Positions 15,880-59,715 of a stretch of 60,905 nt of DNA are shown piece by piece (position 1 is the first letter of the stretch; every line of letters starts with the position of its first letter). Source of the DNA: Candidatus Hadarchaeota archaeon (GTDB lineage: Archaea > Hadarchaeota > Hadarchaeia > Hadarchaeales > Hadarchaeaceae). A program made the position numbers and the translations under genes. Under the pieces are notes generated by a model, which was not told the DNA's origin, ran no database searches, and saw only the letters and a program-made list of their open reading frames with translations. The DNA lies in contig CAYFIY010000002.1 of assembly GCA_964343275.1 (NCBI GenBank), forward strand, positions 1-60,905. The letters run 5' to 3'.

Positions 15880-15892
15880 TTTTTTATTTTTT
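15880..15892 (+). terminator. Oligo-T tract directly after the tRNA
   Basis: TTTTTTATTTTTT begins 3 nt after the discriminator base. Archaeal termination commonly uses T-runs. The tract overlaps the stop codon of the convergent gene. Confidence 0.4.
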
Positions 15893-17092
15893 AGACAGCC
15901 TCAGACGGGCCAACCCCCACATTAAGATCATGAGAACTAAGGCTATGGAAACGTAAATTAATCCCGTTTCGAGCTTATCGCCCGAGACTGACCCCCAAAT
16001 TCCGAAGCAATATAGCTTACCATCCTCAGTACCTATAAAAACCTTGCTGTATGCAATTGCAGGAGAACTGCTGCCGCTTGCACCGATTTGATGCCTCCAT
16101 AAGAGCTCCCCATCCATCGCCTCAAGAGAATACAGATAGCCATCCTGAGATGCAACAAATAATTTGTTTCCAGCAACAGCAGGTGATGACTGTATGGTTT
16201 CTTCTGTCTCATATTCCCAGACAACACGAGCAGTAACGTTATCCCTAGCATCCAGAGCATAAAGGTAGCCGTCGCTTAATCCAAAGTAGGCAATATTTAT
16301 CAAAACAGTAGGGGAGGATTCGATTCGGCTGTCCGCTTGGAAATCCCAGATGAATGCACCGGTGAGTGTATCGAGAGCAAAGATATGGCCATGAGAACTC
16401 ATAAAAACTCGTCCAGCGGTGACTGCTGGGGTCGAGACAGATAATTGGTCTGGTGGGGCAGGTGCCCCCATATTAAAGATCCACGTTATTGTGCCATCAG
16501 TTAATTGCAACGCCACAACTTTTTCACCTGTTCCGAAAATCAAGAGTTCACCAGAAACAACTGGTGAAGATGCCATTTGGTAATCAATACTTTTTTCCCA
16601 ATTTAGCAACCCAGTCGTGGTATCGATCGAATATACATGACCATCGGATCCGGTGACGTAAGCAGCTCCGGCTACCACCGTGGGTGACGTAAATATTGGC
16701 CCGTCTGTTTCATACTCCCATAACATCGCGCCATCCGAAGTTTTAAGACAATATACTGAGTGGTCCAAGGAGCCGAAATAAACAAGCCCGTCAGCGAAAG
16801 TAGGTGAAGAAACTTGGCCTCTAGCTTCGAACTTCCATACTTCCTTCCCATTGAAAATGCTGACCGCATACAAAAACCCACCACGGGAGCCCACGAAGAC
16901 CAAATAGTTTTCAACTGCCGGAGAGGAAAGCCCAGCATCAGCGGTAAATACCCACGCAATCTCGTCATTTTCTGGTCCTGGAGCGTCAGAATAACCCGTG
17001 CGTTGGGTGTCATGCTTGAAAGTTGGCCATTCCTCCGCCTGGACAGTTCCTACACATACTAATAAGGTTATTACAACAATCATTAAACGCAA
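15884..17092 (-). CDS. PQQ-like beta-propeller repeat protein, secreted and C-terminally anchored
   Basis: 402 aa with an N-terminal signal-like helix and a C-terminal TM (LIYVSIALVLMILMWGL). It has repeated blades with the Y(A/S/C)(L/V/I)D..(T/D)G...W pattern. Confidence 0.8.
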   Translation of the reverse strand: MRLMIVVITLLVCVGTVQAEEWPTFKHDTQRTGYSDAPGPENDEIAWVFTADAGLSSPAVENYLVFVGSRGGFLYAVSIFNGKEVWKFEARGQVSSPTFADGLVYFGSLDHSVYCLKTSDGAMLWEYETDGPIFTSPTVVAGAAYVTGSDGHVYSIDTTTGLLNWEKSIDYQMASSPVVSGELLIFGTGEKVVALQLTDGTITWIFNMGAPAPPDQLSVSTPAVTAGRVFMSSHGHIFALDTLTGAFIWDFQADSRIESSPTVLINIAYFGLSDGYLYALDARDNVTARVVWEYETEETIQSSPAVAGNKLFVASQDGYLYSLEAMDGELLWRHQIGASGSSSPAIAYSKVFIGTEDGKLYCFGIWGSVSGDKLETGLIYVSIALVLMILMWGLARLRLSKK

Positions 17093-28022: not shown

Positions 28023-28631
28023 CTATATCAGGTCGAGCTGTCTGGGAATTTTAATAATGACTTGTTTTTTGTCTACTTCGACTGTCGTCCCATTTTTTTC
28101 CGTTGAGGTGGGCAATGCAACCGTGCAGAAATACTCTCTTTTGAGGTCAGGTGCCACGGCGAATATTTCGACTGATTCGTGATAGAATTTAACCCTGACA
28201 TTGTCCTTGCTCTCCACCCCTTCGGCAGTCAAAGTTATCGTTGCCCTGCACACATCAGCCAAAACGTTGTATTCTGGAATTACCCTTTCTTTGATTTCTC
28301 GCTGAGGTAACTTTTTAGGAACTGCTTCTGATATTTCGGTTAGTGTTTTTTTAAGAGGTTGCAAAGTAGGAGCTATTTCCTTTTTTCCTTGTGGCAATTT
28401 TTCCCACCCGACGCCTGAACCAAAACGCCTAACACCAACTTTTGGTGGATTTTTTCCATTACTGGATATGGATATGCTAAAGCCACTTCTTTTTTCTACT
28501 CCTCCAGGTCTTTTAATTGCAAACCCTGGCTGATCTTCGATTAATTTTTTTGGTATTTTAAACTCCTTTTCGATATCTCCGAAGTATCTCATCATTCGCC
28601 TGAAGATTTCATAGAACGGATCGCGCGTCAT
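28023..28631 (-). CDS. Protein with a C-terminal Hsp20/alpha-crystallin-like domain
   Basis: The C-terminal ~85 aa fit the alpha-crystallin domain pattern (ATITLTAEGVESKDNVRVKFYHESVEIFAV...TVALPTSTEKNGTTVEVDKKQVIIKIPR). I placed the start at ATG 28631 (MTRDPFYEIF); the track ORF begins at GTG 28730. Confidence 0.5.
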   Translation of the reverse strand: MTRDPFYEIFRRMMRYFGDIEKEFKIPKKLIEDQPGFAIKRPGGVEKRSGFSISISSNGKNPPKVGVRRFGSGVGWEKLPQGKKEIAPTLQPLKKTLTEISEAVPKKLPQREIKERVIPEYNVLADVCRATITLTAEGVESKDNVRVKFYHESVEIFAVAPDLKREYFCTVALPTSTEKNGTTVEVDKKQVIIKIPRQLDLI

Positions 28632-28977
28632 TTTCTTCACCAAATTGATTATTATATCTGTACTTTTATAATTAAACAACGCTTCAGATAACCCCAAAAA
28701 ACTCTTCTTCACGAAAGCTACAACCGCCACCTACAAAGAAATCGCATTCTTCGCAGCATCTATCACGTTTTTCACGGTCTCCGAAAAGAAAGCAGTTGAA
28801 ACAGCACTTAGGTATGCGCTTGCCATCAAATAGATAAAATTAATTATGTAGTTAAAATATGCTGCCTAGCCTGTGTTTTATCTTTACTTTATTCTCTATT
28901 TCGATTGCAAAGAGGCACGAGGAATTCTGTTTAAGGCTCAACATCTGTTTAAATTTTAGAGTATGAGCGGTTTCGTA

Positions 28978-29376
28978 TTAGCTGGTTGGAACGACTATCA
29001 GCCGTCCCATCATTAGACCGTGAGTCGGGCTGCAGTAAATTGTGCAAAAGAACGGGAACGTGCCCGCTTTTTCCGCTGTAAACTCAATCTCGACCCACTT
29101 CCCAGGGTATAGTTTAGCATTTATATCATAACCGGAGATCGCGATACCGTGCACGACGTCTTCCGCGTATATCAACAACTTTACACTTTCACCTTGATTC
29201 ACGACTATCTCGTCAGGTTCGAAACCTCCCATCTCCGATGCCCTTGCATTTACCATAATTGTCACGTTTTCGCCTTTAGAGAGGAAAATATCTCCACCCA
29301 TGATCGGAAACGAAAGGAATGCCAGCGTGCCCAAGACCACGCACGAAAGGGCAAGGAGTTCCCATTTTTTTATCAT
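28978..29376 (-). CDS. Small membrane-anchored or secreted cupredoxin with a CuA-type ligand pattern
   Basis: 132 aa with an N-terminal hydrophobic helix. Ligands are H76 and then C111-x3-C115-x3-H119-x2-M122 (FFCTIYCSPTHGLMMG). This is the spacing seen in cytochrome oxidase subunit II and NosZ CuA sites. Confidence 0.75.
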   Translation of the reverse strand: MIKKWELLALSCVVLGTLAFLSFPIMGGDIFLSKGENVTIMVNARASEMGGFEPDEIVVNQGESVKLLIYAEDVVHGIAISGYDINAKLYPGKWVEIEFTAEKAGTFPFFCTIYCSPTHGLMMGRLIVVPTS

Positions 29377-29380
29377 TTTA

Positions 29381-31327
29381 TCACCCGAATAACACCCAGA
29401 GGAAGGCTATTCCCGACAACAAATGCAGCGTGCTCATTACTGCGGTAGCCCGCATCGCTTTACTGCGGTCGCCAAACATTTTAAAGGATATCTTATGCGT
29501 TGCCCCAATGGCCAGCGCTAAACCGACAAACAAGAAGGCTGACTGGATAAACGGAAGTAGAGTAGCACCGATTGGCGACCACATATCGCTGGCATTGGTG
29601 AAGCCTACGAAGCTCAAGATATTCCAGCCATGCCCCAACGGATCTGAGAAGGCGTAAATTGGATAGGCCCAGTTAATTAACATCAGGATCAGACCAAACG
29701 ACATCCAGAGAAGCAGTTGATAGGGAACAAGCGAGTAACTGAAAGTTAAAAATGCCCTTTTCGTCGAGACATCGGTCGCTCTGGCGGCTTTCTTGGCCAA
29801 CCAGGAGAACGCATAGAAGATCGCCGGAAAGATGATGAGCGCTATGCCCGAGATTAACAAAGCCCACAAGACCCAGTTCATGAAACCACCGGGGGTGGGA
29901 ATCAGTAGTGCTATGGTGGGGAGGTTGGCTCCCATCGTCACTCCCATGTTACCCCAGTCCTTGATCCAAAAAAACGCGCCGAAGAAAACTAGCTGATAGA
30001 CTATGACTAAGGAAAAGCGAATGAAACCCATCCAGGCCTCATCTGGCCTCTCTTGCCCCCTTTCTATGCCTTCCTTTCCCACCATCCTCAATTTAACGGT
30101 CATGTTATCGAGTGGACAGGATTTGAGACATTCATAGCATTGACCACATGGGATGTTCGAGTCGTTTCCTCCAGGGTAGAGCTTCCATGGGCATCCATAC
30201 CCCTTAGGGCTCCCTTTTAAACATTCCTTGGATTTGTGAGCATCACAAATTTTCTTATCCCTGCTTCGCACTGAGAAGATGGAGGCAGAAGCCGAGTGCC
30301 CCATGTATCCACCAGCGGGACATATGTGTCTGCAGAAGTTTCGCTGGCTGCCAGTGAAAATGAGCGGAATTGCTAAACCTAGAGCGATCAACAATATGAA
30401 GAACAACGCAGTCACCACCGGCCTCGTCACGAGCCAGGGGATTATCAGAGATATCGCAAGGAATCCTAATGTCGTAATCCACATATTGTTGAGTTTATCG
30501 GGCCACTTCCGGTTAAGCGAGAACCACTTCTTTGGCTCCCGAACCGAGTAGAGCCTTTTTCTAGATATCCAATCCCCCATTGCTGGCAGGGGACACACAG
30601 TGTCCCAAGTTCTACCACCAAAAAATATCATGAACTCGACTGCTGCAAACCATAAGACCCACACTACGACTATGGAGAAATTCAGCGCTCCAAGTGGATT
30701 CCCGAAAAGACCTATGAATATGATTACTATGAAAATAAGGAGATTTGGCAGCATTATAGCGTAATGGAACCCCCTCCATTGTAGAATCCGCTTGAGCAGT
30801 GCTCCAATTCCCCTAACTCTGAGCAGGTCAAACTCTCTGTCGATGGGGACTCCAAGAAGTGTGTTAATTGGCTCATACTTCCAATGATAGGTCAATAATC
30901 CCACGGATAGAACTGCAGCCAAAATAGAAAAGACATGGAATGAATTTAAAGCGAACGCAGGCTCCACAATCACATCCGACACCATAAACGGATGTAGGGG
31001 GCCGCAGAAGGAGGCGCACCGTAGTTTAAATTTCCCAGCCTCCTCGAAGGTGACGGGACCAACTATGGTTGTTTCCCGAGGTAGCACATCTACCTTGATA
31101 TCCTTGCCATCTATGTAGATCCCATGGGTCACGTCTAAGCTGGTCAACTTGAAAGTCACCGGCTGCCCTGCGCGAACGTAGATCCTCTCAGGAATGAAAC
31201 CGAACTGATACGCCTGGATTTCAACGGCCATGGGAGGCTCATCGGCGCTGGTCAAGGGAAAGAATGAGAAAATAAATCCCGCTGACAAAACCGATAATAT
31301 CATAAGCAATGGTATGAATCGCTTCAA
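29381..31327 (-). CDS. Fusion protein: N-terminal CuA-type cupredoxin domain plus polytopic NapH/NosH/CcoG-like polyferredoxin membrane domain
   Basis: 648 aa. It starts with a signal/anchor helix, then a cupredoxin domain with H68 and C104-x3-C108-x3-H112-x2-M115 (CASFCGPLHPFM). About 10 TM helices follow, with NapH-type CP motifs (WDTVCPLP, FCRHICPAGG) and a ferredoxin-like loop (CPWKLYPG, CGQCYECLKSCP). Confidence 0.75.
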   Translation of the reverse strand: MKRFIPLLMILSVLSAGFIFSFFPLTSADEPPMAVEIQAYQFGFIPERIYVRAGQPVTFKLTSLDVTHGIYIDGKDIKVDVLPRETTIVGPVTFEEAGKFKLRCASFCGPLHPFMVSDVIVEPAFALNSFHVFSILAAVLSVGLLTYHWKYEPINTLLGVPIDREFDLLRVRGIGALLKRILQWRGFHYAIMLPNLLIFIVIIFIGLFGNPLGALNFSIVVVWVLWFAAVEFMIFFGGRTWDTVCPLPAMGDWISRKRLYSVREPKKWFSLNRKWPDKLNNMWITTLGFLAISLIIPWLVTRPVVTALFFILLIALGLAIPLIFTGSQRNFCRHICPAGGYMGHSASASIFSVRSRDKKICDAHKSKECLKGSPKGYGCPWKLYPGGNDSNIPCGQCYECLKSCPLDNMTVKLRMVGKEGIERGQERPDEAWMGFIRFSLVIVYQLVFFGAFFWIKDWGNMGVTMGANLPTIALLIPTPGGFMNWVLWALLISGIALIIFPAIFYAFSWLAKKAARATDVSTKRAFLTFSYSLVPYQLLLWMSFGLILMLINWAYPIYAFSDPLGHGWNILSFVGFTNASDMWSPIGATLLPFIQSAFLFVGLALAIGATHKISFKMFGDRSKAMRATAVMSTLHLLSGIAFLWVLFG

Positions 31328-31761
31328 TGGACAACCGCCTTATAACATTTTTTGATTCCCCGTGTTAGGCGATGAATTTCTTTCCAAAATTTCTTGCTAT
31401 CTCCGTACTTGTCCAGTAAATCCCAAAGATACTCCGAAGTCTTTTTGCCAGTGCTGAATAGATTGTTAGCCTCTTCGACAGAACGAGACCATCTCCTGTT
31501 GGTTCTCTCGAGCACAGCAAAAAGAAGTTTTGTTCCGCCGTAATAACATGCGTCGAATTTTTTAACCTGTTCTTTACGCGCATCGACGATGTAGTGAGCA
31601 AGGTCCACTAACGGGAAACCCGCTTCTTTCTCCGGAACCTTCTGAATATAAGCCCCGGGCGTACCGGAATAGGTTATTTCTCTGGATTTCCAATAGTACT
31701 CTTCGAAATCTTTGCATGTTTCTTTAATTAACTCTTCAATGTGGATAGACATCAACACCAT
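31324..31761 (-). CDS. Hypothetical soluble protein (145 aa) within the molybdoenzyme operon
   Basis: Translationally coupled on both sides (overlaps at 31761 and 31324-31327). It has no signal peptide, TM helix or cofactor motif that I recognise. Confidence 0.5.
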   Translation of the reverse strand: MVLMSIHIEELIKETCKDFEEYYWKSREITYSGTPGAYIQKVPEKEAGFPLVDLAHYIVDARKEQVKKFDACYYGGTKLLFAVLERTNRRWSRSVEEANNLFSTGKKTSEYLWDLLDKYGDSKKFWKEIHRLTRGIKKCYKAVVH

Positions 31762-32516
31762 TATTCCTTCACAATATTCATCTGTTCAATCCCGGTAATG
31801 CCCTCGGATCGCACTAGGGATGAATTCTCATCTCCACTAGGATGAAACCTTATTATCTCTGGATTTATCCCCCACGACAGAACGTCTTGGGACACGAACT
31901 TGTTCAGTAACCTACCGAGTACAGCGTAAAACTGTGAACCTCCGTCTATATCGATTTGTTCGCACAGAACCAATATCCATTTTCCTAGATGATCTTGGAG
32001 GAATTTTCTCTGGGCATCCCTACAAATCTCTGCATTTTCTCCATCTTCCTTGGACACGGCGTAAGCTTCCTTGAGGGAGAGGAAACTCATGAATTCTAGT
32101 TCTATGCTCGCATGATCGGGCCTGTCCTTACTTTTCCCGCTGATTTCCAACCCGAAAGCACTATAGAAGCCTGCTATGTCGGCTAGCTTATGGGTTTTCA
32201 GAAAAAGCCGTCCTGGGAAATACTCCAGTTCGTAAGGTGGGCACCTCGCCTTTTTACCCACACCAAACAAGCATGAGTGCTCAGAGGTGAGATCGAGAAA
32301 CGTGCTCCGGTCTAGCTTGGAGCTGATATGTTCTAGAGCTTTGATGCCGTCTTCCAACTCGTATTTTGATAGTACTCCCGCAACTACTCTCAAACGTTTT
32401 AAGAATGATCCATCCAGAATTTCATCTCTGAACCTCTCATTTGGGTAATCCAACCCCTCCGAAAAAATCTTATACATTTCGCTTCTGGCCAAAGCCTTTT
32501 GTACTTCCTCTTTCAT
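31761..32516 (-). CDS. TorD/NarJ/DmsD-family redox-enzyme maturation chaperone
   Basis: 251 aa with the family pattern ARSEMYKIFSEGL...PPYELEY...DRPDHASIELEFMSFL. Confidence 0.8.
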   Translation of the reverse strand: MKEEVQKALARSEMYKIFSEGLDYPNERFRDEILDGSFLKRLRVVAGVLSKYELEDGIKALEHISSKLDRSTFLDLTSEHSCLFGVGKKARCPPYELEYFPGRLFLKTHKLADIAGFYSAFGLEISGKSKDRPDHASIELEFMSFLSLKEAYAVSKEDGENAEICRDAQRKFLQDHLGKWILVLCEQIDIDGGSQFYAVLGRLLNKFVSQDVLSWGINPEIIRFHPSGDENSSLVRSEGITGIEQMNIVKE

Positions 32517-32526
32517 CGTTTTCCTC

Positions 32527-33726
32527 CTATGTTACATCCAGCCTATAGACATCTAGATTTCTATCGTAGCGATCCCTCACAGAAATGGGCTCCATTATCG
32601 GAACCCTCGTGACTTCATTGCTCTTTCCATCGTACCCTATGGCTTCACCATTCTGAACCTTGAATGATTCCATTGTTTTTTCAGAACTCCCGAACAGGTG
32701 AATTAGACCTAATAACTCCTCGTCATCCCTCGCCCGCTTATACGTTTTCAATGCATTCTCCCTTCCTGGTCCAAAGAGTTGGTTGAGAAAGTTGGGCGGC
32801 GCATGAATGGGTGGTATATAATATATGTTGGGTTCTGTACCGAATTGCGGGTACAGGGGGAGTGCGACTTTTTTTTCGTGCACCAAGAAGTCAATTGGGT
32901 TTTCTGGATTTGCGTTTTCTGGTAAGCTCAAAAATCCATTTATCCTTATCTTACCTATGCACATTTCGAAACATTGAGGTGATAATCCCTGCTCTATTTT
33001 AGGATAGCACCCTATGCATTTTTCGGACATCCCCCTAACCGAATTAAACATTGGTTTCTTGTAAGGACAACCTTTGACGCAACCTCGAACGCCCCTGCAG
33101 TGACCCTGGTCGATAAGGACTATTCCATCATCATCGCGCTTGTAGATTGCCTGTATCGGACACGCGGCTAGACAACCTGGAAATGTACAGTGGTTGCATA
33201 ACCGTGCAAGATAAAAAAACCAACTAGGGTGAGGCAGAGAATGGATGTATGCATCTCGAGAAATGATCTCTCCGCCTATTTCGTCTTCCCCGATGTTGGG
33301 ATGTGCCCAATCCATCTCGTCCGGGGTGATCCCCAACATTTTATCTGGTCCTCCATGTATTTTATCTCCAACCCAACGCGACCAATTACCGTTGGGTGGT
33401 TCACCCAATGTTCCTTCCCCTGACCTCGTGGCTTCGAAAATGGTCTTCCCTTTGTACACGTTGCCTTGCCATTTCTGTGGTCCGAGCAACTCAAGAAGTT
33501 TGACATCCCATCCTGTAGGGTAGAAACCATAGGGCTTGGTTTCAACGTTGTTCCACATCATGTACTCCTGGCCCAATTCATTAGTCCATGTCGTCTTGCA
33601 TGCGAGTGAACACGACTGACATCCAATACATTTGTTAGTATCGAAAACACCAGCCCACTGTCGTTTCGGCCTGCGCTCCTCATAGGGATATTCCATCTCC
33701 CTTCCAATCTGCCAGTTGTAGACCAT
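32527..33726 (-). CDS. Iron-sulfur (beta) subunit of a type II DMSO-reductase-family enzyme, NarH-like
   Basis: Four Cys groups in NarH order: CIGCQSCSLAC, CNHCTFPGCLAACP, CRGVRGCVKGCPY (a three-Cys group, as at the NarH 3Fe-4S site) and CIGCYPKIEQGLSPQCFEMC. I trimmed the start to ATG 33726 (MVYNWQIGR), just after the alpha-subunit stop. Confidence 0.9.
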   Translation of the reverse strand: MVYNWQIGREMEYPYEERRPKRQWAGVFDTNKCIGCQSCSLACKTTWTNELGQEYMMWNNVETKPYGFYPTGWDVKLLELLGPQKWQGNVYKGKTIFEATRSGEGTLGEPPNGNWSRWVGDKIHGGPDKMLGITPDEMDWAHPNIGEDEIGGEIISRDAYIHSLPHPSWFFYLARLCNHCTFPGCLAACPIQAIYKRDDDGIVLIDQGHCRGVRGCVKGCPYKKPMFNSVRGMSEKCIGCYPKIEQGLSPQCFEMCIGKIRINGFLSLPENANPENPIDFLVHEKKVALPLYPQFGTEPNIYYIPPIHAPPNFLNQLFGPGRENALKTYKRARDDEELLGLIHLFGSSEKTMESFKVQNGEAIGYDGKSNEVTRVPIMEPISVRDRYDRNLDVYRLDVT

Positions 33727-33733
33727 GGGCAAA

Positions 33734-36700
33734 CTATTCACCACTTGTTGAGATGAACCCACCGCGTAAGAATTCATTCATCGCATCATTCTCGTAACCG
33801 ACTCTTAGTCCAAGTTTGGCCGGCCTCCACTTGCCCCCATTTATACCGCCGTCTTCTGCCTTGGTGAACTTCACGAATGATTCCCGCGGTGCCCCGTTCG
33901 CACAATGGACATCCGGCGAGAACCCTTTGCCGATGACTTGTCCCATCAGTTCCTTTCTCACTAGCGTATCGGTCATAAGTGTGGGCCTCAACCAAGACCT
34001 AGTGGAGCTTTGATGACCTCCATATCTAAACATGGCCTGGTAATTGGTATTGGGGTTCCTCGCCAATCCGTCCTCCCTAGTTTCGTGTCCTCGGACGCTT
34101 CCATGGGTGGCTTGATACATGTTGAACCAAGTTTTGGAAACACCCTTAGGATGATTTGGCGAATATTTCGCACGGAGCATGCACCTCGCTACCTTGTAAT
34201 CACTAGGTTTCCCTTCCCAACCCTTGAAAGGCCTATCTTCCGGATCGGGATCACACCATATGTAATCGCCGTCCTCTATGCCCATATCTTTAGCGTCCTT
34301 AGGGTTGATCTCTACATAACCCTCATTGACCCAAGGCATTCTAGTATCTCGACGGTACATGTCACCGAACGGTCCAAACCAGACTGATAGGATACTCGTG
34401 TCAACATTGAAGCTGTGTACAGAATGTCTGAACTTTGGCGTAAGATAGATGTGGGTAAACCCTTTCTCCATAAGGGGATGGCTAGTTTTGACTATCTCAT
34501 CGGGTGTGCGCACCACGTTTCTCACTTGCCTAGTTTCGCCGGATAAGTCGGAGCTGGGCCACCCGTAGTCTTCTGGTGTCTTTGGGTTGATGAGGGGATG
34601 TGATTTAGCGATAATAGCGTTGGGTTCGTGAAAGGTTGCATCTATAGGCTCACGGTACACCGGAAGATTTTCCCCATAGTCGAGGAACTCATCCTCCTCT
34701 CTGTAAAACTCCAACCTCCCAGTTTTATTGTACCAAGGCTGAGATTCGACGCTCTGTTCGTAACCCACGAACTTGGGATAAGTCCTGGTCATTATGAGCA
34801 CTGGAATACCGTCCCTTGCCTTAGCCAGCATGTCTTCTACATCGTAGCCTTTAGTAGCGTTGCTGTGGTCGATGATGCGTTGCAAGTATGTCTTTGCTTT
34901 GTCCTCCTTGATGAACTTCCAATAATCCCTGAACATGGTGTTTCCAGTGATGTCGGCCAACTTCTCTGAAATCCCCATATAGGTCTCAACATCACCCCTG
35001 GTGTCGTAAATTCTTGGAATCCCCGAAATGGGTGCCACCATCACGAATGGATTGGTAACGGAAGCGGTCAGGTCATGTACATTATATTCCCCCCAGCTAT
35101 CCACAGGTAGGACAATATCTGCGTACTCGCAGCTGGCAGTCCACCACCACTCGTTGACCACCAACGTCTCTATCTTCCTATTCCTCAAGAGGTTCATCAC
35201 CAAGTCGTAATGCCCCTTGGCGTTTCCGAGGAGGGAGTTAGATCCAGCGAACATCAGGAACTTGGTGGGAAAGGGCATGTGGGTATTTCCGAGAAAATAT
35301 TTCCCGTGAACCTTCAGCGGGCTATCACCATGTGCATAGAAGTGAGCCGACTGCATGGCAAAGTAGGTCTTGACGTTAGCCGGTTTACTTGGGTCCAAGG
35401 TGATGTTGAATGGGTCCTCCGCTATATAATGCGGAGTACCGTTAAAGAGCGCGGCACGATAGTTTCCCGCATAGCTGCCGACATTCCCGCCGAAAAAGCC
35501 TACATTCTTAGTAAGAGACGCAACTAGGAATATCGCCCTATCTTTTAGGTCTCCGTTGAACATCTGGTTTGGCCCCATGCCTGTAGTAAAGAGCACCTTC
35601 TGGGGGTTGGCTGCCAACGCCCTTGCCAAGTTCACGATTGCGTCCTTGGAGGCCCAAGTGACATTGGAAGTGCTTTCTACATCCCAAGTATCCGTGAGGT
35701 GTTGCTTTATCAAATCAAATATAGGCCGCACTTTGACATTTTCGCCTGTTGTAAGGGTGACATTAAATTCGCCATCCAACGCCGGGTCCAAACCCTTGGG
35801 TGTAAACCTATCGCCTATATCGTCCCTTGAAACAGCTGCTGGTTTCCCAGAGTTTCTGTCCCATACGACGAAATCACCCCATTCGTCTCTCATAGTTTCG
35901 GTAACGGTCGGACCGTCCACGTTAGTGGCAAACGGTGCTGGGGCCCTCTCGCCTTTTTTAACCACGTTGGTGACGGTGAGTTCTGCATTCTGGTACCCCG
36001 GTATCACCTCGGTAGCCCTGAGCAATTTTCTGGAATTCATATTCACCAGGAAAGGAAGGTCGGTGTAACCCTTGACAAAGTCCCTGTCGTAGAGCTCTTC
36101 TGTCATTATCACTTGAGCCAGTCCTAACGCGAAAGCTGGGTCCGTCCCGGGCCTTAGGATGATCATCTCGTCAGCTTTAGATGAGGTGCAGTTGTAATCC
36201 GTGGTAATTACGACTATTTTCGTGCCCTTCAGTCTAGCCTCGGTCAGCCAGTGAGCGTCGGGCATCTTAGTGCATATCCAGTTCATACCCCAACAAATCA
36301 CGATGTTTGAGTGCTCCACGTTTGCCAAGTCGAATTCTACGGTTTGTTGTCCCGTTACCATAGGATGTCCGGGTGGTAGGTCGGTGTGCCAAGTATAGTT
36401 ATCAAATCCAGTTCCGCCGACTGCCTCGTCGGCTCCCACACCGCGCACAAATGAGTCCAAGAGAGCCATAGAATTTGCGAGCCTGTAAGCCCCGAAAAGC
36501 TTTATCATGCCCAGCAGGGGCATGCCACCGCGAAACTTCATAGCCCGTACCCCTGCGCCCCCCATCTTCTCTATCATTTTTTCGTCGTATTGCTGTAACC
36601 GTAGAAGATTTGCCCCGTTGCCTCCAGAGTATGTCCTAGCTATATCTATCATGGCCTTGGCGATGAGCTCATACGCTTCATCCCATGAAACACGGACCCA

Positions 36701-37048
36701 CGTGTCTTCACCCCTGTTGAAGAGCTCGAGGGGCGGACGCCCATCAGCTCCGCGTGGAAAATCATGATCGACCCACTGCTTAAAGCCGCTTCTCACAAGC
36801 GGATATTTTACCCTTCGATCTCCGTAAAACCTTTCAGCAATGGCGATACCCTTGTTGCATATCCTCGGATCCCACCTCGCACTTACCTTTGTCCCGTAAA
36901 GGTCGGTTGCATCCCGGTACCTCTGGCTCGGCCCAATGCGGGTTATCACCCCGTTCTTCACGTATGCCTTCAAGTAGCAATTGTGCGTGTCATTCGGAGT
37001 GCATGGAAAAATAAAAGTATCGTCAAAGGCGAATATGTCCCTATACAA
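33734..37048 (-). CDS. Molybdopterin catalytic (alpha) subunit of a type II DMSO-reductase-family enzyme (NarG/NxrA/PcrA/EbdA-like)
   Basis: The 1104-aa track ORF aligns by eye to NarG landmarks: an FS0 region ending in [13 protein letters not shown], and the Mo-ligand Asp context TKMPDAHW (NarG has TRTPDAHF). The same frame stays open upstream to 37252 and encodes a twin-arginine signal, so 37048 (TTG) is only the first canonical start codon. Confidence 0.9.
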
Positions 37049-37264
37049 TTTCTCCCAATCTCGTGTAGGATAGTACTCTAAGGGGTTTATTTCTGGCTTG
37101 GGTGTAAACCAGCGGAATACGCTATCTGCACCTAAATATGCAAGCGCCCCAACTGCTCCGCCTATGCCTACGTATTTTAAAAACTGTCTTCTAGTTATCT
37201 CCTTAATTTTCTCACCTATGATTTCAACATTAGAGAGTGATGAAATTATTTCTCAGAAATGACA

Positions 37265-37272
37265 CATATAAA
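37265..37272 (-). promoter_or_regulatory. Candidate TATA box for the molybdoenzyme operon
   Basis: The minus strand reads ATTTATATG about 35 nt upstream of the ATG at 37230. This call rests on position and composition only. Confidence 0.3.
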
Positions 37273-45878: not shown

Positions 45879-46382
45879 ATGGTAAGCGCAAGATATCCGG
45901 TAGCATTCTTTTGCGTGTGGGCCGCCTGGATCGCTCTGACGGCTTCGTTCGACATCCAAGAGTTAGCTATAGGTGCATTGATTTCAGGGTTCGTTTCTCT
46001 TATCTCGTATAAGTCCCTCTTTCACAGAGAAATTGCAGAAAAATTGCAAATCAAGCGATTGGCCAACGCCTTAGCGTACGTGCCGGCATACATCTGGGCT
46101 GAGATTAAGGCACATGCTACGGTTATGTATCTAATTCTACATCCCCAAATGCCTATTAAACCGGGTATCGTCCGCGTTCCCACTAAACTCAAAACTGACT
46201 TTGGGATAACGGGCCTGGCTAATGCAATTACCATGACCCCCGGGACCCTCAGCGTTGATGTTGTTGAGAATAAGTCATCTGTGTATGTTCACTGGATCGA
46301 CGTAAAGGCGGTCGATCCTAAAAAAACAAGCGCTGAAATCGCTATGCCCTTCGAACGTTTCCTGAGGAGGATTTTCGGATGA
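45879..46382 (+). CDS. mnhE: MrpE/MnhE (MbhA-like) subunit
   Basis: 167 aa with two N-terminal TM helices and an MnhE-like core. It is the first gene of the cluster. Confidence 0.75.
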   Translation: MVSARYPVAFFCVWAAWIALTASFDIQELAIGALISGFVSLISYKSLFHREIAEKLQIKRLANALAYVPAYIWAEIKAHATVMYLILHPQMPIKPGIVRVPTKLKTDFGITGLANAITMTPGTLSVDVVENKSSVYVHWIDVKAVDPKKTSAEIAMPFERFLRRIFG

Positions 46383-46639
46383 TATTGATTGAAATCGTGG
46401 TAATTGTCCTCTTCGCCATCGTAATCTGCGCAATCCGTGCCGTACTAGGTCCCACTGCCCCTGACAGAGTCGTGGCGATAGATGGGATTACGGCCCTGAT
46501 GATCGCGTCATTAGTTATTCTCGGAGTTTATTACCAAGCATCGATTTTTTTGGATGTTGCTCTTGTCTATGCCCTTCTTTCATTTTTGGGAACACTTGCT
46601 ATCTCTAAGTACCTCGAGGGAAGGGGGATAGAATCATGA
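46379..46639 (+). CDS. mnhF: MrpF/MnhF (MbhB-like) subunit
   Basis: 86 aa, 3 TM, ATGA overlap with the upstream gene. Confidence 0.7.
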   Translation: MILIEIVVIVLFAIVICAIRAVLGPTAPDRVVAIDGITALMIASLVILGVYYQASIFLDVALVYALLSFLGTLAISKYLEGRGIES

Positions 46640-46974
46640 TTGAAATCATCGCGTACATACTGTTTGGAATTGGTTCTGTATGTTCTGTCGTAGGCGCCAT
46701 AGGGATCGTTCGCTTCCCGGACGTGTACAACCGAATCCACGCCAACACGGTGGTAGTGGTCGGCGGATCGATTCTGCTCATAATCGGTGCAGGAATAATC
46801 GGAGGGATCAGCGTCTTCACCCTCAAGGCAGTTGTAATCGCTCTTTTCGTCTTTTTGACGAATCCAGTGAGCTCCCATGCCATTGGAAGAGCCGCTCACA
46901 AGTCGGGAGTCAAGCTCTGGAAAAAGAGCGTCGTTGACAAGCTGAAGGAGGAGAGACCTTGGTCGAAACACTGA
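46636..46974 (+). CDS. mnhG: MrpG/MnhG (MbhC-like) subunit
   Basis: 112 aa with the motif RFPDVYNRIHANT, ATGA overlap. Confidence 0.8.
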   Translation: MIEIIAYILFGIGSVCSVVGAIGIVRFPDVYNRIHANTVVVVGGSILLIIGAGIIGGISVFTLKAVVIALFVFLTNPVSSHAIGRAAHKSGVKLWKKSVVDKLKEERPWSKH

Positions 46975-47201
46975 TCCAAAACATCCTGGTCATTTTTCTT
47001 TTCGTGCTGTTCGTGATAGCGATCGAGCTTAAGGACTTGCTCTATTCAGTCATAGTGCTGGGTGGCGCCAGCATAACCCTCGCCGTTATCTTCTACATGC
47101 TCCAAGCCCCGGATATAGCGATAACACAGGCGGCCGTCGGGGCGGGCGTCTCGACGGTGCTTTTCGTCATCGCGGTGAGCCGCACGAGGAGGCAGGAATA
47201 A
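46959..47201 (+). CDS. DUF4040 / MbhD-like small membrane subunit
   Basis: 80 aa, 3 TM, APDIAITQAAVGAGVSTVLF, TTG start. Confidence 0.65.
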   Translation: MVETLIQNILVIFLFVLFVIAIELKDLLYSVIVLGGASITLAVIFYMLQAPDIAITQAAVGAGVSTVLFVIAVSRTRRQE

Positions 47202-47509
47202 TGGGAAAAGCTCAGCGTGCAGTAGCTTTGGGGTTAGTAGTTGCCTTGGGCTTAATGCTGATTTATGTAACTAATTTCACGATGCAGCCATTTGGGTCAT
47301 TTCCACAGCGTCAGGTGAACGAATACGTTGGAGACGCCGTTGGGCAGCAATACCTTGAAGACGCTCTTTGGCAGACCGGAGCGACAAATGTCGTCACAAG
47401 CGTGGTCTGGGGGTATCGAGCCTATGATACTTTAGGTGAGTCCACGGTCCTGTTTACTGCAGTCGTGGGTGTTATAATGTTGTTTCGCACTTTAAGGAGG
47501 GATGATTAA
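47201..47509 (+). CDS. MnhB-related (MbhE-like) subunit
   Basis: 102 aa with NVVTSVVWGYRAYDTLGES, characteristic of MnhB-related proteins. Confidence 0.7.
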   Translation: MGKAQRAVALGLVVALGLMLIYVTNFTMQPFGSFPQRQVNEYVGDAVGQQYLEDALWQTGATNVVTSVVWGYRAYDTLGESTVLFTAVVGVIMLFRTLRRDD

Positions 47510-47943
47510 TGGCTGGAATGACCATTATCGTACAAACGATCTCGAGATTACTCTTCCCATTTGTGTTTCTTTTCGGGATCTACATCGTATTTCATGGACA
47601 CCTGACGCCTGGGGGCGGGTTTCCTGGAGGTGCGGTTATTGTTGCATCGATCATCATGCTCATCCTAGCCTATGGTGTCGATAACATCCAAAAACGAATA
47701 AGCTTTTTACAAGCGGAAGTGATCGACGTTATCGGAAGCGTTAGCATTGTTGTAATAGGGCTCATTGGAATTTTGTTGGGAACCTCTTTCCTGCAGAACG
47801 TCTTTCCGTTGGGCGAACAAGGTAGTATATTCAGTGGCGGTAATTTTCTACTGCTTTACATCGGTGTGGGGATTAAGGTCTCGGCTGGTCTTTTATTGAT
47901 TATATACGCGATGTTGTTCGTGACTCAGAGGGAGAAAAAATGA
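47509..47943 (+). CDS. mnhB: MrpB/MnhB (MbhF-like) subunit
   Basis: 144 aa with HGHLTPGGGFPGG. Confidence 0.8.
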   Translation: MAGMTIIVQTISRLLFPFVFLFGIYIVFHGHLTPGGGFPGGAVIVASIIMLILAYGVDNIQKRISFLQAEVIDVIGSVSIVVIGLIGILLGTSFLQNVFPLGEQGSIFSGGNFLLLYIGVGIKVSAGLLLIIYAMLFVTQREKK

Positions 47944-48299
47944 ACCTGAACTACACTATCGCCATGATGCTCATCGCGCTCGGGATCTATTGCTTATTAT
48001 TCAAGCGGAACCTGATCAAGCTCATAATAGGATTATCAGTGATAACGGACGGAGCTCATCTTTTTTTTATAAGTATGGGTTTTCGCGCTGGCGGCATAGC
48101 ACCGATCTTCATCGCCAACTTGGCATCGAACTCAACTGATTTTGCGTCCCTAGCGGTGGATCCGCTTCCCCAGGCCCTCGTGCTGACATCCATCGTCATC
48201 AATATATGTATCACGGCCTTGGCGCTCTCGCTCGCCATCTATGCCTACCGTCACTACAAAACACTTAACCCATTCAACATGAGGAGGCTGAGAGGCTGA
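47940..48299 (+). CDS. mnhC: MrpC/MnhC (MbhG-like, NuoK-related) subunit
   Basis: 119 aa, 3 TM, ATGA overlap. Confidence 0.8.
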   Translation: MNLNYTIAMMLIALGIYCLLFKRNLIKLIIGLSVITDGAHLFFISMGFRAGGIAPIFIANLASNSTDFASLAVDPLPQALVLTSIVINICITALALSLAIYAYRHYKTLNPFNMRRLRG

Positions 48300-48316
48300 T
48301 TCAAGACGCACCCATC

Positions 48317-49810
48317 TTGGCCATCATCGTGCCGTTAGCCGGGGCATTCCTAGCTCCCTTGGTCGACATTCTCGTGAAGCGCACAAATCATCCACGGGCC
48401 CTAGATTACTTTGCACTTGCGGTTACTGTGGGTTCCCTTCTACTCGTGGTGAATATTGTGATGTCCACAGGTGGGAATGATATCATAATATATCGTCTCG
48501 GAGGGTGGGTATCGCCACTAGGGATAAATCTCGTCGTGGATGGGTTGGGCTTGTTGATTGGCATCATCGTAGCTGGCATAAGCACATTAGTCGTGATTTA
48601 TTCAATTGTTTTTATGAAGGATGAAGGCGGTCTGGGGCAGTATTACACCTTGATGCTTCTTTTGACCGCCGGGATGTTGGGAGTAGCCTTAACCGGGGAT
48701 CTTTTTAATCTCTATGTTTTCTTTGAAATAATGTCTATTTCTTCTTACGCTCTCGTCGCTTTCCGCCGCTCCAAAATATCGATAGAAGGTTCAGTGAAAT
48801 ACTTAATCGTTGGATCACTCGGGACCACTTTTATCCTGATCGGTATCGCGTTATTATATGGCATTACAGGGACTCTGAACATAGCCGATCTCGCTGGAAA
48901 AATGGCGGTGGTAAACACGATTCCAGCCTCAACCCCTCTAATTTTGATTATAGCTCTTACTCTTTTTGTGGTGGGTTTTGGGATGAAAATAGGTATGATC
49001 CCCTTTCATGCTTGGCTGCCAGACGCCTATCAATCCGCACCGTCTCCGATTAGCGCAATAATGGCAGGGGGGACGGCTATTGTTGGAGTTGGCGTTCTGC
49101 TCCGAGTTGGCTACCTCATCTTCGGAGCCCCCATGGTTGGTCCCTTGCTCATTGGGTTTGGGGTGGTCACGATGGTTCTCGGCGCGCTCATGGCTCTGGT
49201 TCAGCGCGATTTGAAAAGACTTCTCGCCTACTCCGGTATCTCGCAGATGGGATATATCCTCTTTGGCGTCGGAATGGGGACCGCTTTGGGGATTACGGGT
49301 GGACTCTTTCATATGCTCAACAATGCTATCTATAAGTCCCTACTCTTTTTGGCCGCTGGGGCGATAATTTACAGGGTCGGGACCTCAAGGCTCGACGAAC
49401 TCGGCGGGATTGGAAGAAAGATGCCAATAACAGCGGGGGTTTTCATGGTCGGCGCACTCGCTCTCGCAGGCATGCCACCCTTCAACGGGTTCGCGAGCAA
49501 GTTAACCATATTTTTAGCAGGGATTGACGCCGGGTACTCAATATTGAGCGGCGTCGCGGCAATTATCAGCGCCGTGACTTTGACTTATATGATTAGGGCG
49601 TTTATCGCAATATTCCTAGGGCCGACAACTAGGCGTTTTGCAAAAGTTAAGGAGGCTCCCGGGGCCATGATATTCCCGATGATTGTCTTGGCTGCATTTT
49701 GTATATTGCTTGGGGTACTCCCACAGCTCGGTTTCGACGCCGTGGAACCAGCACAAATGATATTAATTAACCCTTCTAATTACGTCAAAGAGGTGTTGCT
49801 TGGTGTTTAA
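48317..49810 (+). CDS. mnhD: MrpD/NuoM/N-like antiporter-like subunit (MbhH-like)
   Basis: 497 aa with about 14 TM helices and GMKIGMIPFHAWLPDAYQSAPSPISA. Confidence 0.85.
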   Translation: MAIIVPLAGAFLAPLVDILVKRTNHPRALDYFALAVTVGSLLLVVNIVMSTGGNDIIIYRLGGWVSPLGINLVVDGLGLLIGIIVAGISTLVVIYSIVFMKDEGGLGQYYTLMLLLTAGMLGVALTGDLFNLYVFFEIMSISSYALVAFRRSKISIEGSVKYLIVGSLGTTFILIGIALLYGITGTLNIADLAGKMAVVNTIPASTPLILIIALTLFVVGFGMKIGMIPFHAWLPDAYQSAPSPISAIMAGGTAIVGVGVLLRVGYLIFGAPMVGPLLIGFGVVTMVLGALMALVQRDLKRLLAYSGISQMGYILFGVGMGTALGITGGLFHMLNNAIYKSLLFLAAGAIIYRVGTSRLDELGGIGRKMPITAGVFMVGALALAGMPPFNGFASKLTIFLAGIDAGYSILSGVAAIISAVTLTYMIRAFIAIFLGPTTRRFAKVKEAPGAMIFPMIVLAAFCILLGVLPQLGFDAVEPAQMILINPSNYVKEVLLGV

Positions 49811-49888
49811 AGTAAACATCGTACAAATCTCCAAGGATGTCAAGCTTTATGCTAAAACTTTCATAGGTGAATATAGGGGGTAGAAAAC

Positions 49889-51424
49889 GTGATAATGCTG
49901 GATTTTCCAATATTGCTAATATCAGTCCTTATACCATTGGTCTTATCAATACTTTTCCCTTTCTTGGGAAATAAGTCAAAACCGAAGAGATTAGCGATTA
50001 TTAGCTTTATCCTCCTACTCGTGCCTTTAGCCGTAATAACTTTTTTTTCCCTGAACGGTATGATGAGGGAAGGTGTGGTGGACCCATCATTTTTCACCCA
50101 CCAGTTCGTCGGTTCCTTTTCGATGCTCCTCGATCCCTTGAGCGCTCCATTCGTCTTTGGAATAGCTTTAGTTACTGCCATCGTGGCTTTGTTTTCAGCC
50201 CCATACATGGAACATAGAATCAAAGAAATGAAACACGAGGGTCTAGCGCCGCCGTCGATTGGGACCTACTACATGCTTTACACGATGTTCTCGGCGGCAA
50301 TGTTGGGTTTGGTGATGTCGACAAACCTTATCGAATTCTATATTTTTCTAGAGTTATCGCTCATCCCTAGCTTCTTTCTAATTATATGGTATGGTTATGG
50401 GAATCGAACTAGAATAGCCATAATGTATTTGCTTTGGACTCATATAGGTGGGCTGCTTTTCCTTCTTGGAATACTTACCTTGGGTTCATCGGCCGGCACG
50501 TTTGATATTTTGAACATGCAAACCTTGACATTTAACCTTGGGTTAGGGCAGGCCTTGCCGATTGTTGTTGTGCTCATGATAACGATTGGGTTGTTCGTCA
50601 AGATGGCAGTCTTTGGGGTTCACATATGGCTTCCTTACGCACATGCGGAAGCACCGACGCCCGTATCCGCCCTGTTATCTCCCGCATTGATAGGGATATC
50701 GGGCTATGCACTTATCAGAATATCTTATACATTGTTTCCAATTCAGTTCCAAGAAATCTCAATAGTTCTGATGGGGCTCGCTTTGTTGACTATGATTTAC
50801 GGGGGGTTGATGGCTCTCGCTCAGGACGACTTCAAGAGGTTACTGGCCTATTCAAGTATCTCTCAGATGGGGTACATCTTACTAGGGATATCGACTCTCA
50901 CCACCAACGGCGTCACTGGCGGGGTGCTGCATTTTACAACGCATGCTATTGGTAAGTCTGTCCTTTTCATGGTCGCTGGTACACTCATCTTCCAGTTTCG
51001 AGGGTTGAGGAGCATCAGCAAAATGGGTGGCTTGGCATCTAAAGTGCCAATCACGGCGGCGCTAGCTCTCATCGGTTTTCTTTTCTTGGTGGGCATACCC
51101 CCAACCCTCGGCCTGTGGAGTAAGCTCTATATCATTGTAGGGACATTCGATAGGGCCTTAACAATGGGTGGTATTGCCCTCTCCCTAATCTCAATTGGCC
51201 TCATAATTGGGGCAAGCATGACTGCAGCTTACGCATTCTTCACCCTAAAAAAGATATTTCTCGGGAAATTACCGAGTGGGTTAAAAAAAGAACCTGTTCG
51301 CGGATGGTCGAACTTGACCGTGATTATAGCTGTTATGGGAATCAGTGGGGTAATCCTCTTTTTATACCCTGCCGTTTTTATCGATCCGCTTAAAGATTTC
51401 CTCGGTACTACCTTTGGGTGGTGA
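49889..51424 (+). CDS. Second antiporter-like subunit (NuoL/NuoM/MrpA-core-like)
   Basis: 511 aa with VKMAVFGVHIWLPYAHAEAPTPVSALLS. This mixes NuoM-like AHxEAPT with NuoL-like PTPVSAL. Confidence 0.85.
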   Translation: MIMLDFPILLISVLIPLVLSILFPFLGNKSKPKRLAIISFILLLVPLAVITFFSLNGMMREGVVDPSFFTHQFVGSFSMLLDPLSAPFVFGIALVTAIVALFSAPYMEHRIKEMKHEGLAPPSIGTYYMLYTMFSAAMLGLVMSTNLIEFYIFLELSLIPSFFLIIWYGYGNRTRIAIMYLLWTHIGGLLFLLGILTLGSSAGTFDILNMQTLTFNLGLGQALPIVVVLMITIGLFVKMAVFGVHIWLPYAHAEAPTPVSALLSPALIGISGYALIRISYTLFPIQFQEISIVLMGLALLTMIYGGLMALAQDDFKRLLAYSSISQMGYILLGISTLTTNGVTGGVLHFTTHAIGKSVLFMVAGTLIFQFRGLRSISKMGGLASKVPITAALALIGFLFLVGIPPTLGLWSKLYIIVGTFDRALTMGGIALSLISIGLIIGASMTAAYAFFTLKKIFLGKLPSGLKKEPVRGWSNLTVIIAVMGISGVILFLYPAVFIDPLKDFLGTTFGW

Positions 51425-51753
51425 AAATGGCGTTTGAATTCTTCGCCGAAGGCCTACCTTATCCCTTGACACTAGTATATTTTTATATTGAGGGTCTTGG
51501 GTTTGCCTTAGCCCTGTTGTATTTTTATTACATCTTCGTAAGTGGCGGGCGGCCGTTTTACTTAGACCTCTTCCGCAAGTTTGAGACTCCCATCATAGAT
51601 CGGGGTTATAACGAAAAAATCGTAAGGGGGACATTTAGATTGAGCCAGATTATCAAAAAAGCCCACAGCGGCGACTTGAGTACTTACTTGTTTTGGATGA
51701 TTTGCGGTTCCGTTCTTGTCCTGCTTTGGATGATAATCCAATTATGGTTTTAA
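51418..51753 (+). CDS. Stand-alone TM / amphipathic lateral helix / TM protein (NuoL C-terminus or MbhI-like)
   Basis: 111 aa that overlaps the stop of the preceding antiporter-like gene. It has a hydrophobic segment, a ~45-aa charged amphipathic stretch (FETPIIDRGYN...SGDLSTY), and a second hydrophobic segment. Confidence 0.6.
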   Translation: MVKMAFEFFAEGLPYPLTLVYFYIEGLGFALALLYFYYIFVSGGRPFYLDLFRKFETPIIDRGYNEKIVRGTFRLSQIIKKAHSGDLSTYLFWMICGSVLVLLWMIIQLWF

Positions 51754-51865
51754 CGATATGGTGTGTGCGTGAAGTGAAGGATGAATATAGAACAAGTCGG
51801 CTTTTGGCAATGATGGGTGAGGATCTAATCAAACTCCTTGCCATCAAACGGTTTTTGGTGTTGTA

Positions 51866-56420: not shown

Positions 56421-56421
56421 A

Positions 56422-59706: not shown

Positions 59707-59715
59707 TTAAACACT

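Follow-up and report, generated by a model that had tools for sequence, protein, structure and literature searches.

The stretch of DNA examined here is contig CAYFIY010000002.1 of a Candidatus Hadarchaeota archaeon (60.9 kb, hereafter the window, meaning the whole of it), and our subject is a compact six-gene operon on its minus strand (28978-37207) that would encode an outward-facing respiratory molybdoenzyme together with a copper-containing membrane module. All six genes are co-oriented and read in the order alpha (catalytic subunit), beta (iron-sulfur, Fe-S, subunit), chaperone, orphan, fusion (a CuA-cupredoxin/NapH-like membrane protein) and cupA (a second CuA cupredoxin). Alpha and beta overlap by 44 nucleotides (nt), beta and chaperone are 10 nt apart, chaperone and orphan overlap by 1 nt, orphan and fusion by 4 nt, and fusion and cupA are separated by 4 nt. 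Since every gene overlaps its neighbour or lies no more than 10 nt from it, the layout is that of a single operon. An earlier note, made from the bare sequence, had described six tightly packed, co-oriented genes with these domains, and the gene calls, Pfam and NCBIfam bear this out.

Contigs matching the window come from Tara Oceans sample SAMEA2620113, taken at 270 m in the Arabian Sea oxygen minimum zone (OMZ; <0.8 um fraction). The same sample yielded a binned metagenome-assembled genome (MAG) of Ca. Penumbrarchaeia (Thermoplasmatota, EX4484-6), a class for which no alternative electron acceptor was described (PMC12220078). Should the window stem from this lineage, nitrate respiration would be a capacity of the class that has been overlooked. 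One alternative assembly breaks at the alpha/beta border, and a chimeric assembly was suspected on that account; this was ruled out by an independent contig (L092) with 99.98% identity over window positions 29952-35522 and the same order of alpha, beta, chaperone, orphan and fusion. Because that contig spans alpha through fusion, the gene order is no assembly artefact.

The molybdoenzyme subunits and their chaperone

Alpha (33734-37207, minus strand; about 1157 amino acids, aa, with an uncertain start) is a predicted molybdopterin catalytic subunit exported by twin-arginine translocation (Tat). It matches NxrA of the Kuenenia nitrite oxidoreductase (NXR; KsNXR, chain 7B04_B) over its full length (917 bits, residues 6-1156), and its next structural relatives are far weaker, namely PcrA (200 bits), Escherichia coli NarG (149 bits at best) and EbdA (136 bits). 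The best NCBIfam match is the model for alpha subunits of type II dimethyl sulfoxide (DMSO) reductases, and a score of 336 bits against TIGR03479, whose cutoff is 985, places the protein outside the EbdABC/SerABC/ClrABC/DdhABC-type subfamily. Alpha carries the Tat motif RRQFLK (37175-37192) and scores 22 bits against TIGR01409 (cutoff 16.7) and 18.3 against PF10518 (below the cutoff of 22.7). Moreover, active-site residues identified in KsNXR by Chicano et al. (2021) recur in alpha: the FS0 motif CTPNDTHNC (36977-37003) holds the 3Cys/1Asp site and the substrate Asn, aligned to KsNXR C67/N70/D71/C75, and the Mo-ligand Asp lies in NYTWHTD (36380-36400), aligned to KsNXR Asp275.

Beta (32527-33777, minus strand; 416 aa, or 399 aa if the start is M18) is an Fe-S electron-transfer subunit of the NxrB/NarH type, matching NxrB (7B04_A) with 379 bits and TIGR03478 with 267 bits, and a pattern search found three CxxC...C cluster motifs in it. 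Since it has no signal peptide, beta would be exported together with alpha. The third gene (31761-32516, minus strand; 251 aa) encodes a cytoplasmic chaperone of the NarJ/TorD type (PF02613, 4.8e-21; TIGR03482, 3e-30).

The three closest homologues of alpha have 68-73% identity to it, and Inmirania thermothiophila, a nitrate-respiring isolate, has one of 65% identity. Identity to Kuenenia NxrA is about 40-48%, counted by eye in three 100-residue alignment blocks covering residues 6-303; by this count it appears nearer to the approximately 40% reported for the Nitrotoga and Hydrogenobaculum enzymes than to the approximately 60% reported among canonical NXRs. The Nitrotoga NXR itself falls in a sister clade, in which known nitrate reducers and a characterised nitrate reductase that faces outwards are also placed (Kitzinger 2018). 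Judged by sequence, alpha-beta is best placed in the lineage of periplasmic NXR and periplasmic nitrate reductase (pNAR) enzymes and not among generic NarGH. The earlier description of a NarG-like and a NarH-like subunit therefore stands as far as a Tat-exported type II molybdoenzyme pair is concerned, but the full-length 7B04 match and the FS0 residues make the pair specifically NXR/pNAR-type. An alpha of this type narrows the substrate to the nitrate/nitrite couple, a substrate that the earlier note had held to be unreadable from the sequence.

The extent of alpha had been given as reaching 37255, which does not hold: that position is the T of an in-frame stop codon (TGA, 37253-37255) and no start. 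No ATG, GTG or TTG occurs between this TGA and RRQFLK, so that alpha must begin at a non-canonical codon, the candidates being ATC 37222, ATA 37219, ATT 37207 and ATA 37198. The most plausible of these, and our best guess, is ATT 37207, which would give MKEITRRQFLK and is preceded by a Shine-Dalgarno-like GGTGAG at 37211-37216; a TTTATAT box lies near the 5' end of alpha, at about 37266-37272 on the minus strand. The public gene call (P0081), with its start at TTG 37048, lacks the signal peptide. Translated sequence ahead of this TTG, RRQFLK included, is conserved in comparison with the homologues and must therefore be coding. All listed alpha homologues have an ATG start 4-16 residues ahead of the RR pair, and a sequencing error at a former ATG is possible.

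The copper and polyferredoxin membrane module

The fusion gene (29381-31327, minus strand) encodes 648 aa in which Pfam and NCBIfam detect a COX2/cupredoxin domain (COX2, Cupredoxin_1) and a Fer4_5/NapH-like domain. It is followed by cupA (28978-29376, minus strand; 132 aa), a membrane-anchored cupredoxin that resembles COX2 too (Cupredoxin_1, 7e-10; COX2, 5e-8) and whose best NCBIfam score, 70 bits, is against the model of Sec-type NosZ, in its C-terminal CuA part. Both proteins show the complete CuA ligand pattern H-x35-C-x3-C-x3-H-x2-M, as H68...C104-x3-C108-x3-H112-x2-M115 in the fusion (30983-31126) and as H76...C-x3-C-x3-H-x2-M, ending at M122, in cupA (29011-29151). With this ligand set in a cupredoxin fold, the two domains are putative CuA sites. 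No COX1 or NosZ propeller partner was found in the 60.9-kb window by tblastn, and both are accordingly read as stand-alone electron-transfer cupredoxins.

Topology prediction gave 11 transmembrane helices for the fusion and a single N-terminal one for cupA, with both cupredoxins facing outwards; in the fusion, by the positive-inside rule, the cupredoxin would lie outside the cell and the Cys-rich loop on the cytoplasmic side. The predicted order of the fusion is a signal-anchor, an outward CuA domain, one transmembrane helix, a NapH-like core of four helices, a Cys-rich positive cytoplasmic loop and a C-terminal extension of five helices; without the cupredoxin part and its two helices, a 4+5-helix protein remains. 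The AlphaFold2 (AF2) model is confident (mean predicted local distance difference test score, pLDDT, 89.8; predicted template modelling score, pTM, 0.92). In Foldseek searches of the PDB the CuA domain alone found matches, the best being the CuA domain of Thermus ba3 oxidase (2CUA; E 7e-7, target-normalised TM-score 0.72, 34% identity), and the NapH-like core with its five-helix extension had no counterpart among the top 50 matches listed. Scores against the NapH models fall far below the cutoffs (TIGR02163, 23.9 against 213; NF007013, 24 against 234), the Pfam score for Fer4_5 also stays under its cutoff (18.4 against 22), and the protein is thus best described as a probable distant relative of NapH and not as a NapH orthologue. 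Its Cys motifs comprise CRHICP at 30317-30334, which is the second Cys-Pro motif, and CGQCYECLKSCP at 30113-30148; one CxxCxxCxxxCP is canonical and the second cluster motif is non-canonical (C361, C369, C379). Profiles, ligands and topology prediction all agree with the earlier identification of a CuA-cupredoxin/NapH-like membrane protein accompanied by a second CuA cupredoxin.

Between the chaperone and the fusion lies the orphan gene (31324-31761, minus strand), whose product of 145 aa is helical and predicted to be cytoplasmic. It has no Pfam or NCBIfam match, and no transmembrane helix, signal peptide or conserved His or Cys was found in it. An exhaustive phmmer search of 1.8 billion proteins returned 26 representatives, all small domainless proteins, and a word-indexed search 2. 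Its AF2 model is a helical bundle (pLDDT 92) with no significant Foldseek match in the PDB, the best being a helical part of Cas10d at E 0.13. The orphan travels with the fusion gene: it stands directly upstream of it in 16 archaeal-type genome loci and in one locus of Myxococcales (L014), with or without a molybdoenzyme.

The haem subunit and the genomic contexts of the module

The absence of a haem-binding subunit and of CxxCH motifs from the operon, which the earlier note had pointed out, is confirmed for all six proteins and extends to the whole window. A hidden Markov model (HMM) built from nine EB_dh gamma subunits of related loci had no match in a six-frame translation of the window, and neither had tblastn searches with the gammas of the three closest operons, COX1, cytochrome b, Rieske protein and the NosZ propeller; the sole CxxCH in a real open reading frame (ORF) lies inside an Fe-S motif of a flavin adenine dinucleotide (FAD) protein. 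The gap of 10 nt between beta and chaperone leaves no remnant of a gamma gene.

Related loci are differently equipped. The three closest alpha homologues all belong to alpha-beta-EB_dh-chaperone operons, with the gamma between beta and chaperone, and none has the fusion nearby. Among 79 fusion loci a close alpha-beta pair was found in two only, both with an EB_dh gamma: a Thaumarchaeota MAG (L015) with the order orphan-fusion-cupA-alpha-beta-gamma-chaperone, and a Spirochaetes MAG (L036) with alpha-beta-chaperone-gamma-fusion. In three Archaeoglobi loci (L017, L018 and L020) the fusion is accompanied by a distant alpha, EB_dh and an ORF that contains the orphan. Nowhere but in the window were alpha-beta and the copper module found together without EB_dh. 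As EB_dh is present in every other locus that joins the module to an NXR-type or related alpha, Methanoperedens as published included, the copper module normally coexists with a gamma subunit. The claim that it replaces a haem-b gamma is therefore weak, with the operon of the window as its single case, and a gamma gene may be encoded elsewhere in the genome.

A side observation concerns the contig of the closest alpha homologue (L084, 793-4416), which holds a second NxrB-like gene. After it come a chaperone gene and a gene for a 526-aa protein in which two cytochrome c domains are fused to EB_dh; downstream, a Rieske/cytochrome b pair is encoded, as is a large multihaem protein. The gene content points to a different, haem-rich wiring of the same enzyme type.

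The fusion belongs to a large and widespread family: the protein search gave 80 clusters, and 254 matches were confirmed in GTDB species genomes, from taxa that include Archaeoglobi, Hydrothermarchaeota, Thermoplasmatota, Thaumarchaeota, Heimdallarchaeota, Anaerolineae, Desulfobacteraceae and Gemmatimonadota. In most archaeal-type loci a cupA homologue follows the fusion. Split forms also occur: in L089 a cupredoxin gene precedes a NapH-like gene of 443 aa, and in L090 a NapH-like gene of 503 aa stands between two cupredoxin genes, the fusion aligning end to end with the first cupredoxin and the NapH-like protein. Furthermore, the module stands beside genes of nitrous oxide reduction: in L090 (4840-11953) the split form is divergent from NosZ-, NosL-, NosD-, ABC-transporter- and ABC-2-membrane-type genes, in L063 (10512-17380) the fused form adjoins nosZ, nosD and nosL, and in L062 (9147-15378) it adjoins a NosZ homologue alone. 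This suggests that the module also serves as electron donor to N2O reductase in lineages without NosR. In Desulfobacteraceae its neighbours are multihaem cytochromes, a plastocyanin-like protein, CcdA and a TlpA-like thioredoxin, and elsewhere, as in L001 and L083, nothing obviously respiratory lies beside it. Such varied neighbours mark the module as a portable unit recruited by different periplasmic redox enzymes. Pfam matches near module loci include CcdA/DsbD, TlpA-like thioredoxin, copper ATPase and PCYCGC, which are gene types of CuA biogenesis, and a further neighbour reads, by its sequence only, like Sco.

Archaeoglobaceae members of the family (P0053, P0056) differ in that the fusion cupredoxin has lost the CuA ligands, RDPVVCDALNPFDY replacing CxxxCGPLHPFM. 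In the Archaeoglobi loci (L017, 3914-5755; L018, 3712-5532; L020, 3979-5733) tblastn found no cupA homologue, and the orphan domain lies within a much longer open frame. This would be a degenerate or re-purposed version, still beside EB_dh and a molybdoenzyme. As to synteny in relatives, which the earlier proposal presupposed, the module thus recurs with a molybdoenzyme in L015, L036, the three Archaeoglobi loci and published Methanoperedens, but the orphan-fusion-cupA triad mostly occurs without one.

The electron source of outward-facing archaeal nitrate reductases (Nar) and of haloarchaeal N2O reductases is a long-standing gap, and in the haloarchaeal literature the electron donor to NarH has remained unidentified. 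A module of two CuA cupredoxins and an extended NapH-like protein, found beside Nar/Nxr, EB_dh, NosZ or multihaem cytochromes and in at least 254 GTDB species genomes of archaea and bacteria, is a testable candidate for the missing link. As a candidate donor to periplasmic Nar/Nxr and Nos, this widespread module may be a more valuable lead than the gamma-less operon, which, if truly without gamma, would show that the haem-b subunit is dispensable. We found no paper on the fusion itself, its wide distribution or its link with nosZ.

Electron path, direction and competing readings

The closest published counterpart is the nar cluster of Methanoperedens, which comprises NarG with a Tat signal, NarH, NarJ, Orf7 (a b-type cytochrome), an HCOII-like protein, NapH with five additional transmembrane helices and a second HCOII-like protein (PMC4683180). 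All of these are transcribed at a high level, and a membrane-bound complex of an unusual kind was proposed for nitrate reduction (Arshad 2015, PMC4683180). This "non-canonical Nar" (PMC4683180; PMC13079737) and the window operon have in common the Tat-exported NarG, NarH, NarJ, the NapH with five extra helices, and two CuA (HCOII-like) proteins that have one transmembrane helix each and flank NapH; both are without NarI or NarM and have an outward active site. The gene order after the chaperone is identical save for three differences: the haem-b protein Orf7 (EB_dh), which Methanoperedens has between NarJ and the first HCOII-like protein, is missing from the window; the unrelated 145-aa orphan takes its position; and the first HCOII-like protein is fused to NapH in the window but encoded by a separate gene in Methanoperedens. 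From this likeness, the window enzyme appears to be of the same, biochemically uncharacterised kind. The architecture, offered as new in the earlier note, is consequently in part a known one: the same component list, copper/polyferredoxin wiring included, was described for Methanoperedens in 2015, and the gamma-less operon is the new part.

Better characterised systems share parts of the arrangement. KsNXR (NxrABC, PDB 7B04) agrees in the full-length homology of alpha-beta, the Tat signal, the 3Cys/1Asp FS0, the substrate Asn and the Mo-ligand Asp, but it has a haem-b NxrC (Met/Lys ligation) and NxrT, passes electrons to cytochromes and works physiologically in the direction of nitrite oxidation, whereas the window has no NxrC. 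The NapGH, NosGH and NosR modules likewise place a membrane polyferredoxin with a core of four transmembrane helices, Cys-Pro and cytoplasmic Fe-S motifs beside a periplasmic reductase (Nap, Nos); in the window these motifs are partly non-canonical, there is no NapG-like partner, a fused CuA cupredoxin takes the place of the Fe-S protein or flavin mononucleotide domain, and a five-helix domain is added. With EbdABC, SerABC, ClrABC, DdhABC and PcrAB the operon shares a Tat-exported alpha-beta, a TorD-like chaperone and a distantly homologous alpha (to PcrA, the 200 bits given above), but those enzymes use an EB_dh haem-b gamma or a cytochrome c, neither of which is found in the window. The NarGHI of Marine Group II (Rinke 2018) was considered as an explanation and rejected, that enzyme being a canonical cytoplasmic NarGHI of proteobacterial origin.

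Our preferred reading, to which we give a probability of roughly 60%, takes the product of the operon to be a respiratory nitrate reductase from the NXR/pNAR lineage that faces outwards and is fed by a membrane NapH-like/CuA donor module, with the gamma subunit lost or encoded elsewhere. Alpha and beta would be folded with the help of the chaperone and exported as a pair. The NapH-like protein would draw electrons either from quinol in the membrane or, by way of its Fe-S loop, from a low-potential donor in the cytoplasm, perhaps with the orphan taking part, and would pass them to its own CuA domain, on to the anchored cupA and from there to the FS4 cluster of beta; the Fe-S chain of beta would then deliver them to Mo, where nitrate would be reduced to nitrite outside the cell. 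In the relatives, a haem-b EB_dh protein would stand between beta and the copper centres. With its loss from the window operon, CuA would have to dock directly to beta, unless a different locus supplies a gamma. The reductive direction is favoured because Methanoperedens is nitrate-reducing, the habitat is oxygen-deficient and the window holds no oxidase; the association with nosZ argues the same way, since electron flow there can only run to the periplasmic reductase. The earlier proposal that alpha-beta is wired to the membrane through CuA and NapH is thus supported as to parts, topology and synteny, while donor, direction and path of the electrons are inferred.

A number of points weigh against the nitrate-reductase reading. 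Direction cannot be read from NXR/NAR sequences, and the enzymes are bidirectional (Kitzinger 2018). Electrons would have to pass from a cytoplasmic Fe-S loop to an outer CuA without a transmembrane haem. Residues 240-246 of the fusion (window 30590-30610) read WDTVCPLP, with Asp for the Cys of a WCTxCPLP motif present in at least 90% of 56 family members; the Cys of this first Cys-Pro motif is kept in a 77%-identical relative (P0002). Alpha, moreover, has no canonical start codon. The likeness to Methanoperedens rests on a published description and not on sequence alignment, and the evidence there for a role of the module stops at transcription. Finally, in most of the 79 fusion loci, that of the closest relative (L083, 77% identity) among them, the module has no molybdoenzyme beside it, and its pairing with alpha-beta could be a recent juxtaposition.

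The strongest competitor, for which we see a substantial chance, if somewhat less than an even one, is that the enzyme is a canonical alpha-beta-gamma complex whose EB_dh gamma (NxrC/Orf7) is encoded elsewhere and sits between beta and the copper module, the haem-free look being an effect of viewing a single window. The constant presence of EB_dh in the other loci with module and alpha, and the gamma gene between beta and chaperone in the three closest alpha homologues, favour it. So do the loci in which EB_dh stands directly upstream of the fusion without an alpha (Gemmatimonadota L038, L057 and L064, and the unclassified L062), which suggest that it is a habitual partner of the CuA module. 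In Nitrospira, indeed, nxrC is kept away from nxrAB. On the other side, no EB_dh occurs anywhere in the 60.9 kb, and the operon is otherwise complete and compact, with no gamma remnant in the 10 nt between beta and chaperone. The opposite extreme would be the first haem-free enzyme in the family of type II DMSO reductases (NXR/NAR), in which the [3Fe-4S] end of beta exchanges electrons directly with CuA, an all Mo/Fe-S/Cu enzyme in an OMZ archaeon, with the two CuA cupredoxins and the extended NapH-like protein then a general donor for outward-facing archaeal Nar and Nos; this we regard as rather unlikely.

It is improbable, in our judgement, that the orphan-fusion-cupA triad is an independent system (a CcoG-like cupric reductase, a copper-handling device or a self-contained redox module) lying by chance downstream of a horizontally acquired nxrAB-chaperone cassette. 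The many loci without a molybdoenzyme, the triad standing alone in L083, and neighbourhoods rich in copper ATPase, CcdA and thioredoxin genes speak for it; CcoG, a member of the NapH family, is a cupric reductase. The overlaps of 1 and 4 nt that join chaperone, orphan and fusion argue instead for co-translation, the module has come to stand next to type II molybdoenzymes or EB_dh in several lineages that are not related, with differing gene orders, and a binuclear CuA is an electron-transfer centre and not a copper-trafficking site. The least probable of the readings is an oxidative direction, in which nitrite would be oxidised outside the cell and electrons would run from beta through CuA to a terminal oxidase or other acceptor, or by reverse flow through the NapH-like protein into the quinone pool, making the organism an OMZ archaeal nitrite oxidiser. 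Its alpha-beta does fall in a lineage that contains periplasmic NXRs, uncharacterised members, archaeal ones included, could oxidise nitrite given high-potential carriers (Kitzinger 2018), of which CuA is one, and the contig of a close alpha homologue (L086) has COX1 nearby. Yet no COX1, cytochrome b or Rieske protein is found in the window, electrons flow reductively in the NosZ loci and in the nitrate-reducing Methanoperedens, which this module serves as well, the identity to Kuenenia NxrA counted in the three blocks is nearer to that of the Nitrotoga/Hydrogenobaculum enzymes than to that among canonical NXRs, and the habitat is oxygen-deficient.

Among the other features of the window, the genes flanking the operon are archaeal (pelota, DnaG and tyrosyl-tRNA synthetase). 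A 235-aa ORF downstream of cupA (28023-28730) was not counted as a member of the system, as it has no Pfam match and shows no relation to the ORF of 226 aa that lies upstream of the L083 triad. An Rfam search of the window returned no match, and a scan for promoters and terminators, which does not model archaeal promoters, gave counts not above those of shuffled sequence. A DUF7530-PNPOx fusion gene with a small ORF (59251-59706) occupies 59251-60852 on the minus strand, some 23 kb away from the operon; a gene of this type and a PNPOx-family small ORF are found in L083 (5704-7434) only about 1-3 kb upstream of the triad cluster. This placement indicates a rearrangement around the triad and would be consistent with later insertion of the nxrAB-chaperone cassette.

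A membrane H+-pyrophosphatase (2962-4956, plus strand; PF03030, E 9e-253) and a pyrroloquinoline quinone (PQQ)/BamB-like beta-propeller protein with a possible N-terminal signal sequence (15884-17092, minus strand) have no connection to the operon. Lastly, a cluster for an Mrp/Mbh-Mbx-type, complex-I-like membrane oxidoreductase lies at 45879-58606 on the plus strand, where Pfam detects MnhE, MrpF, MbhE, MnhB, a NuoK-like subunit, two antiporter-type subunits, NuoB, NuoC, NuoD, NuoH and NuoI, and no NuoEFG-type input module was seen by Pfam within the cluster. The nitrate reductase and this oxidoreductase could belong to one respiratory chain, which the latter would feed.

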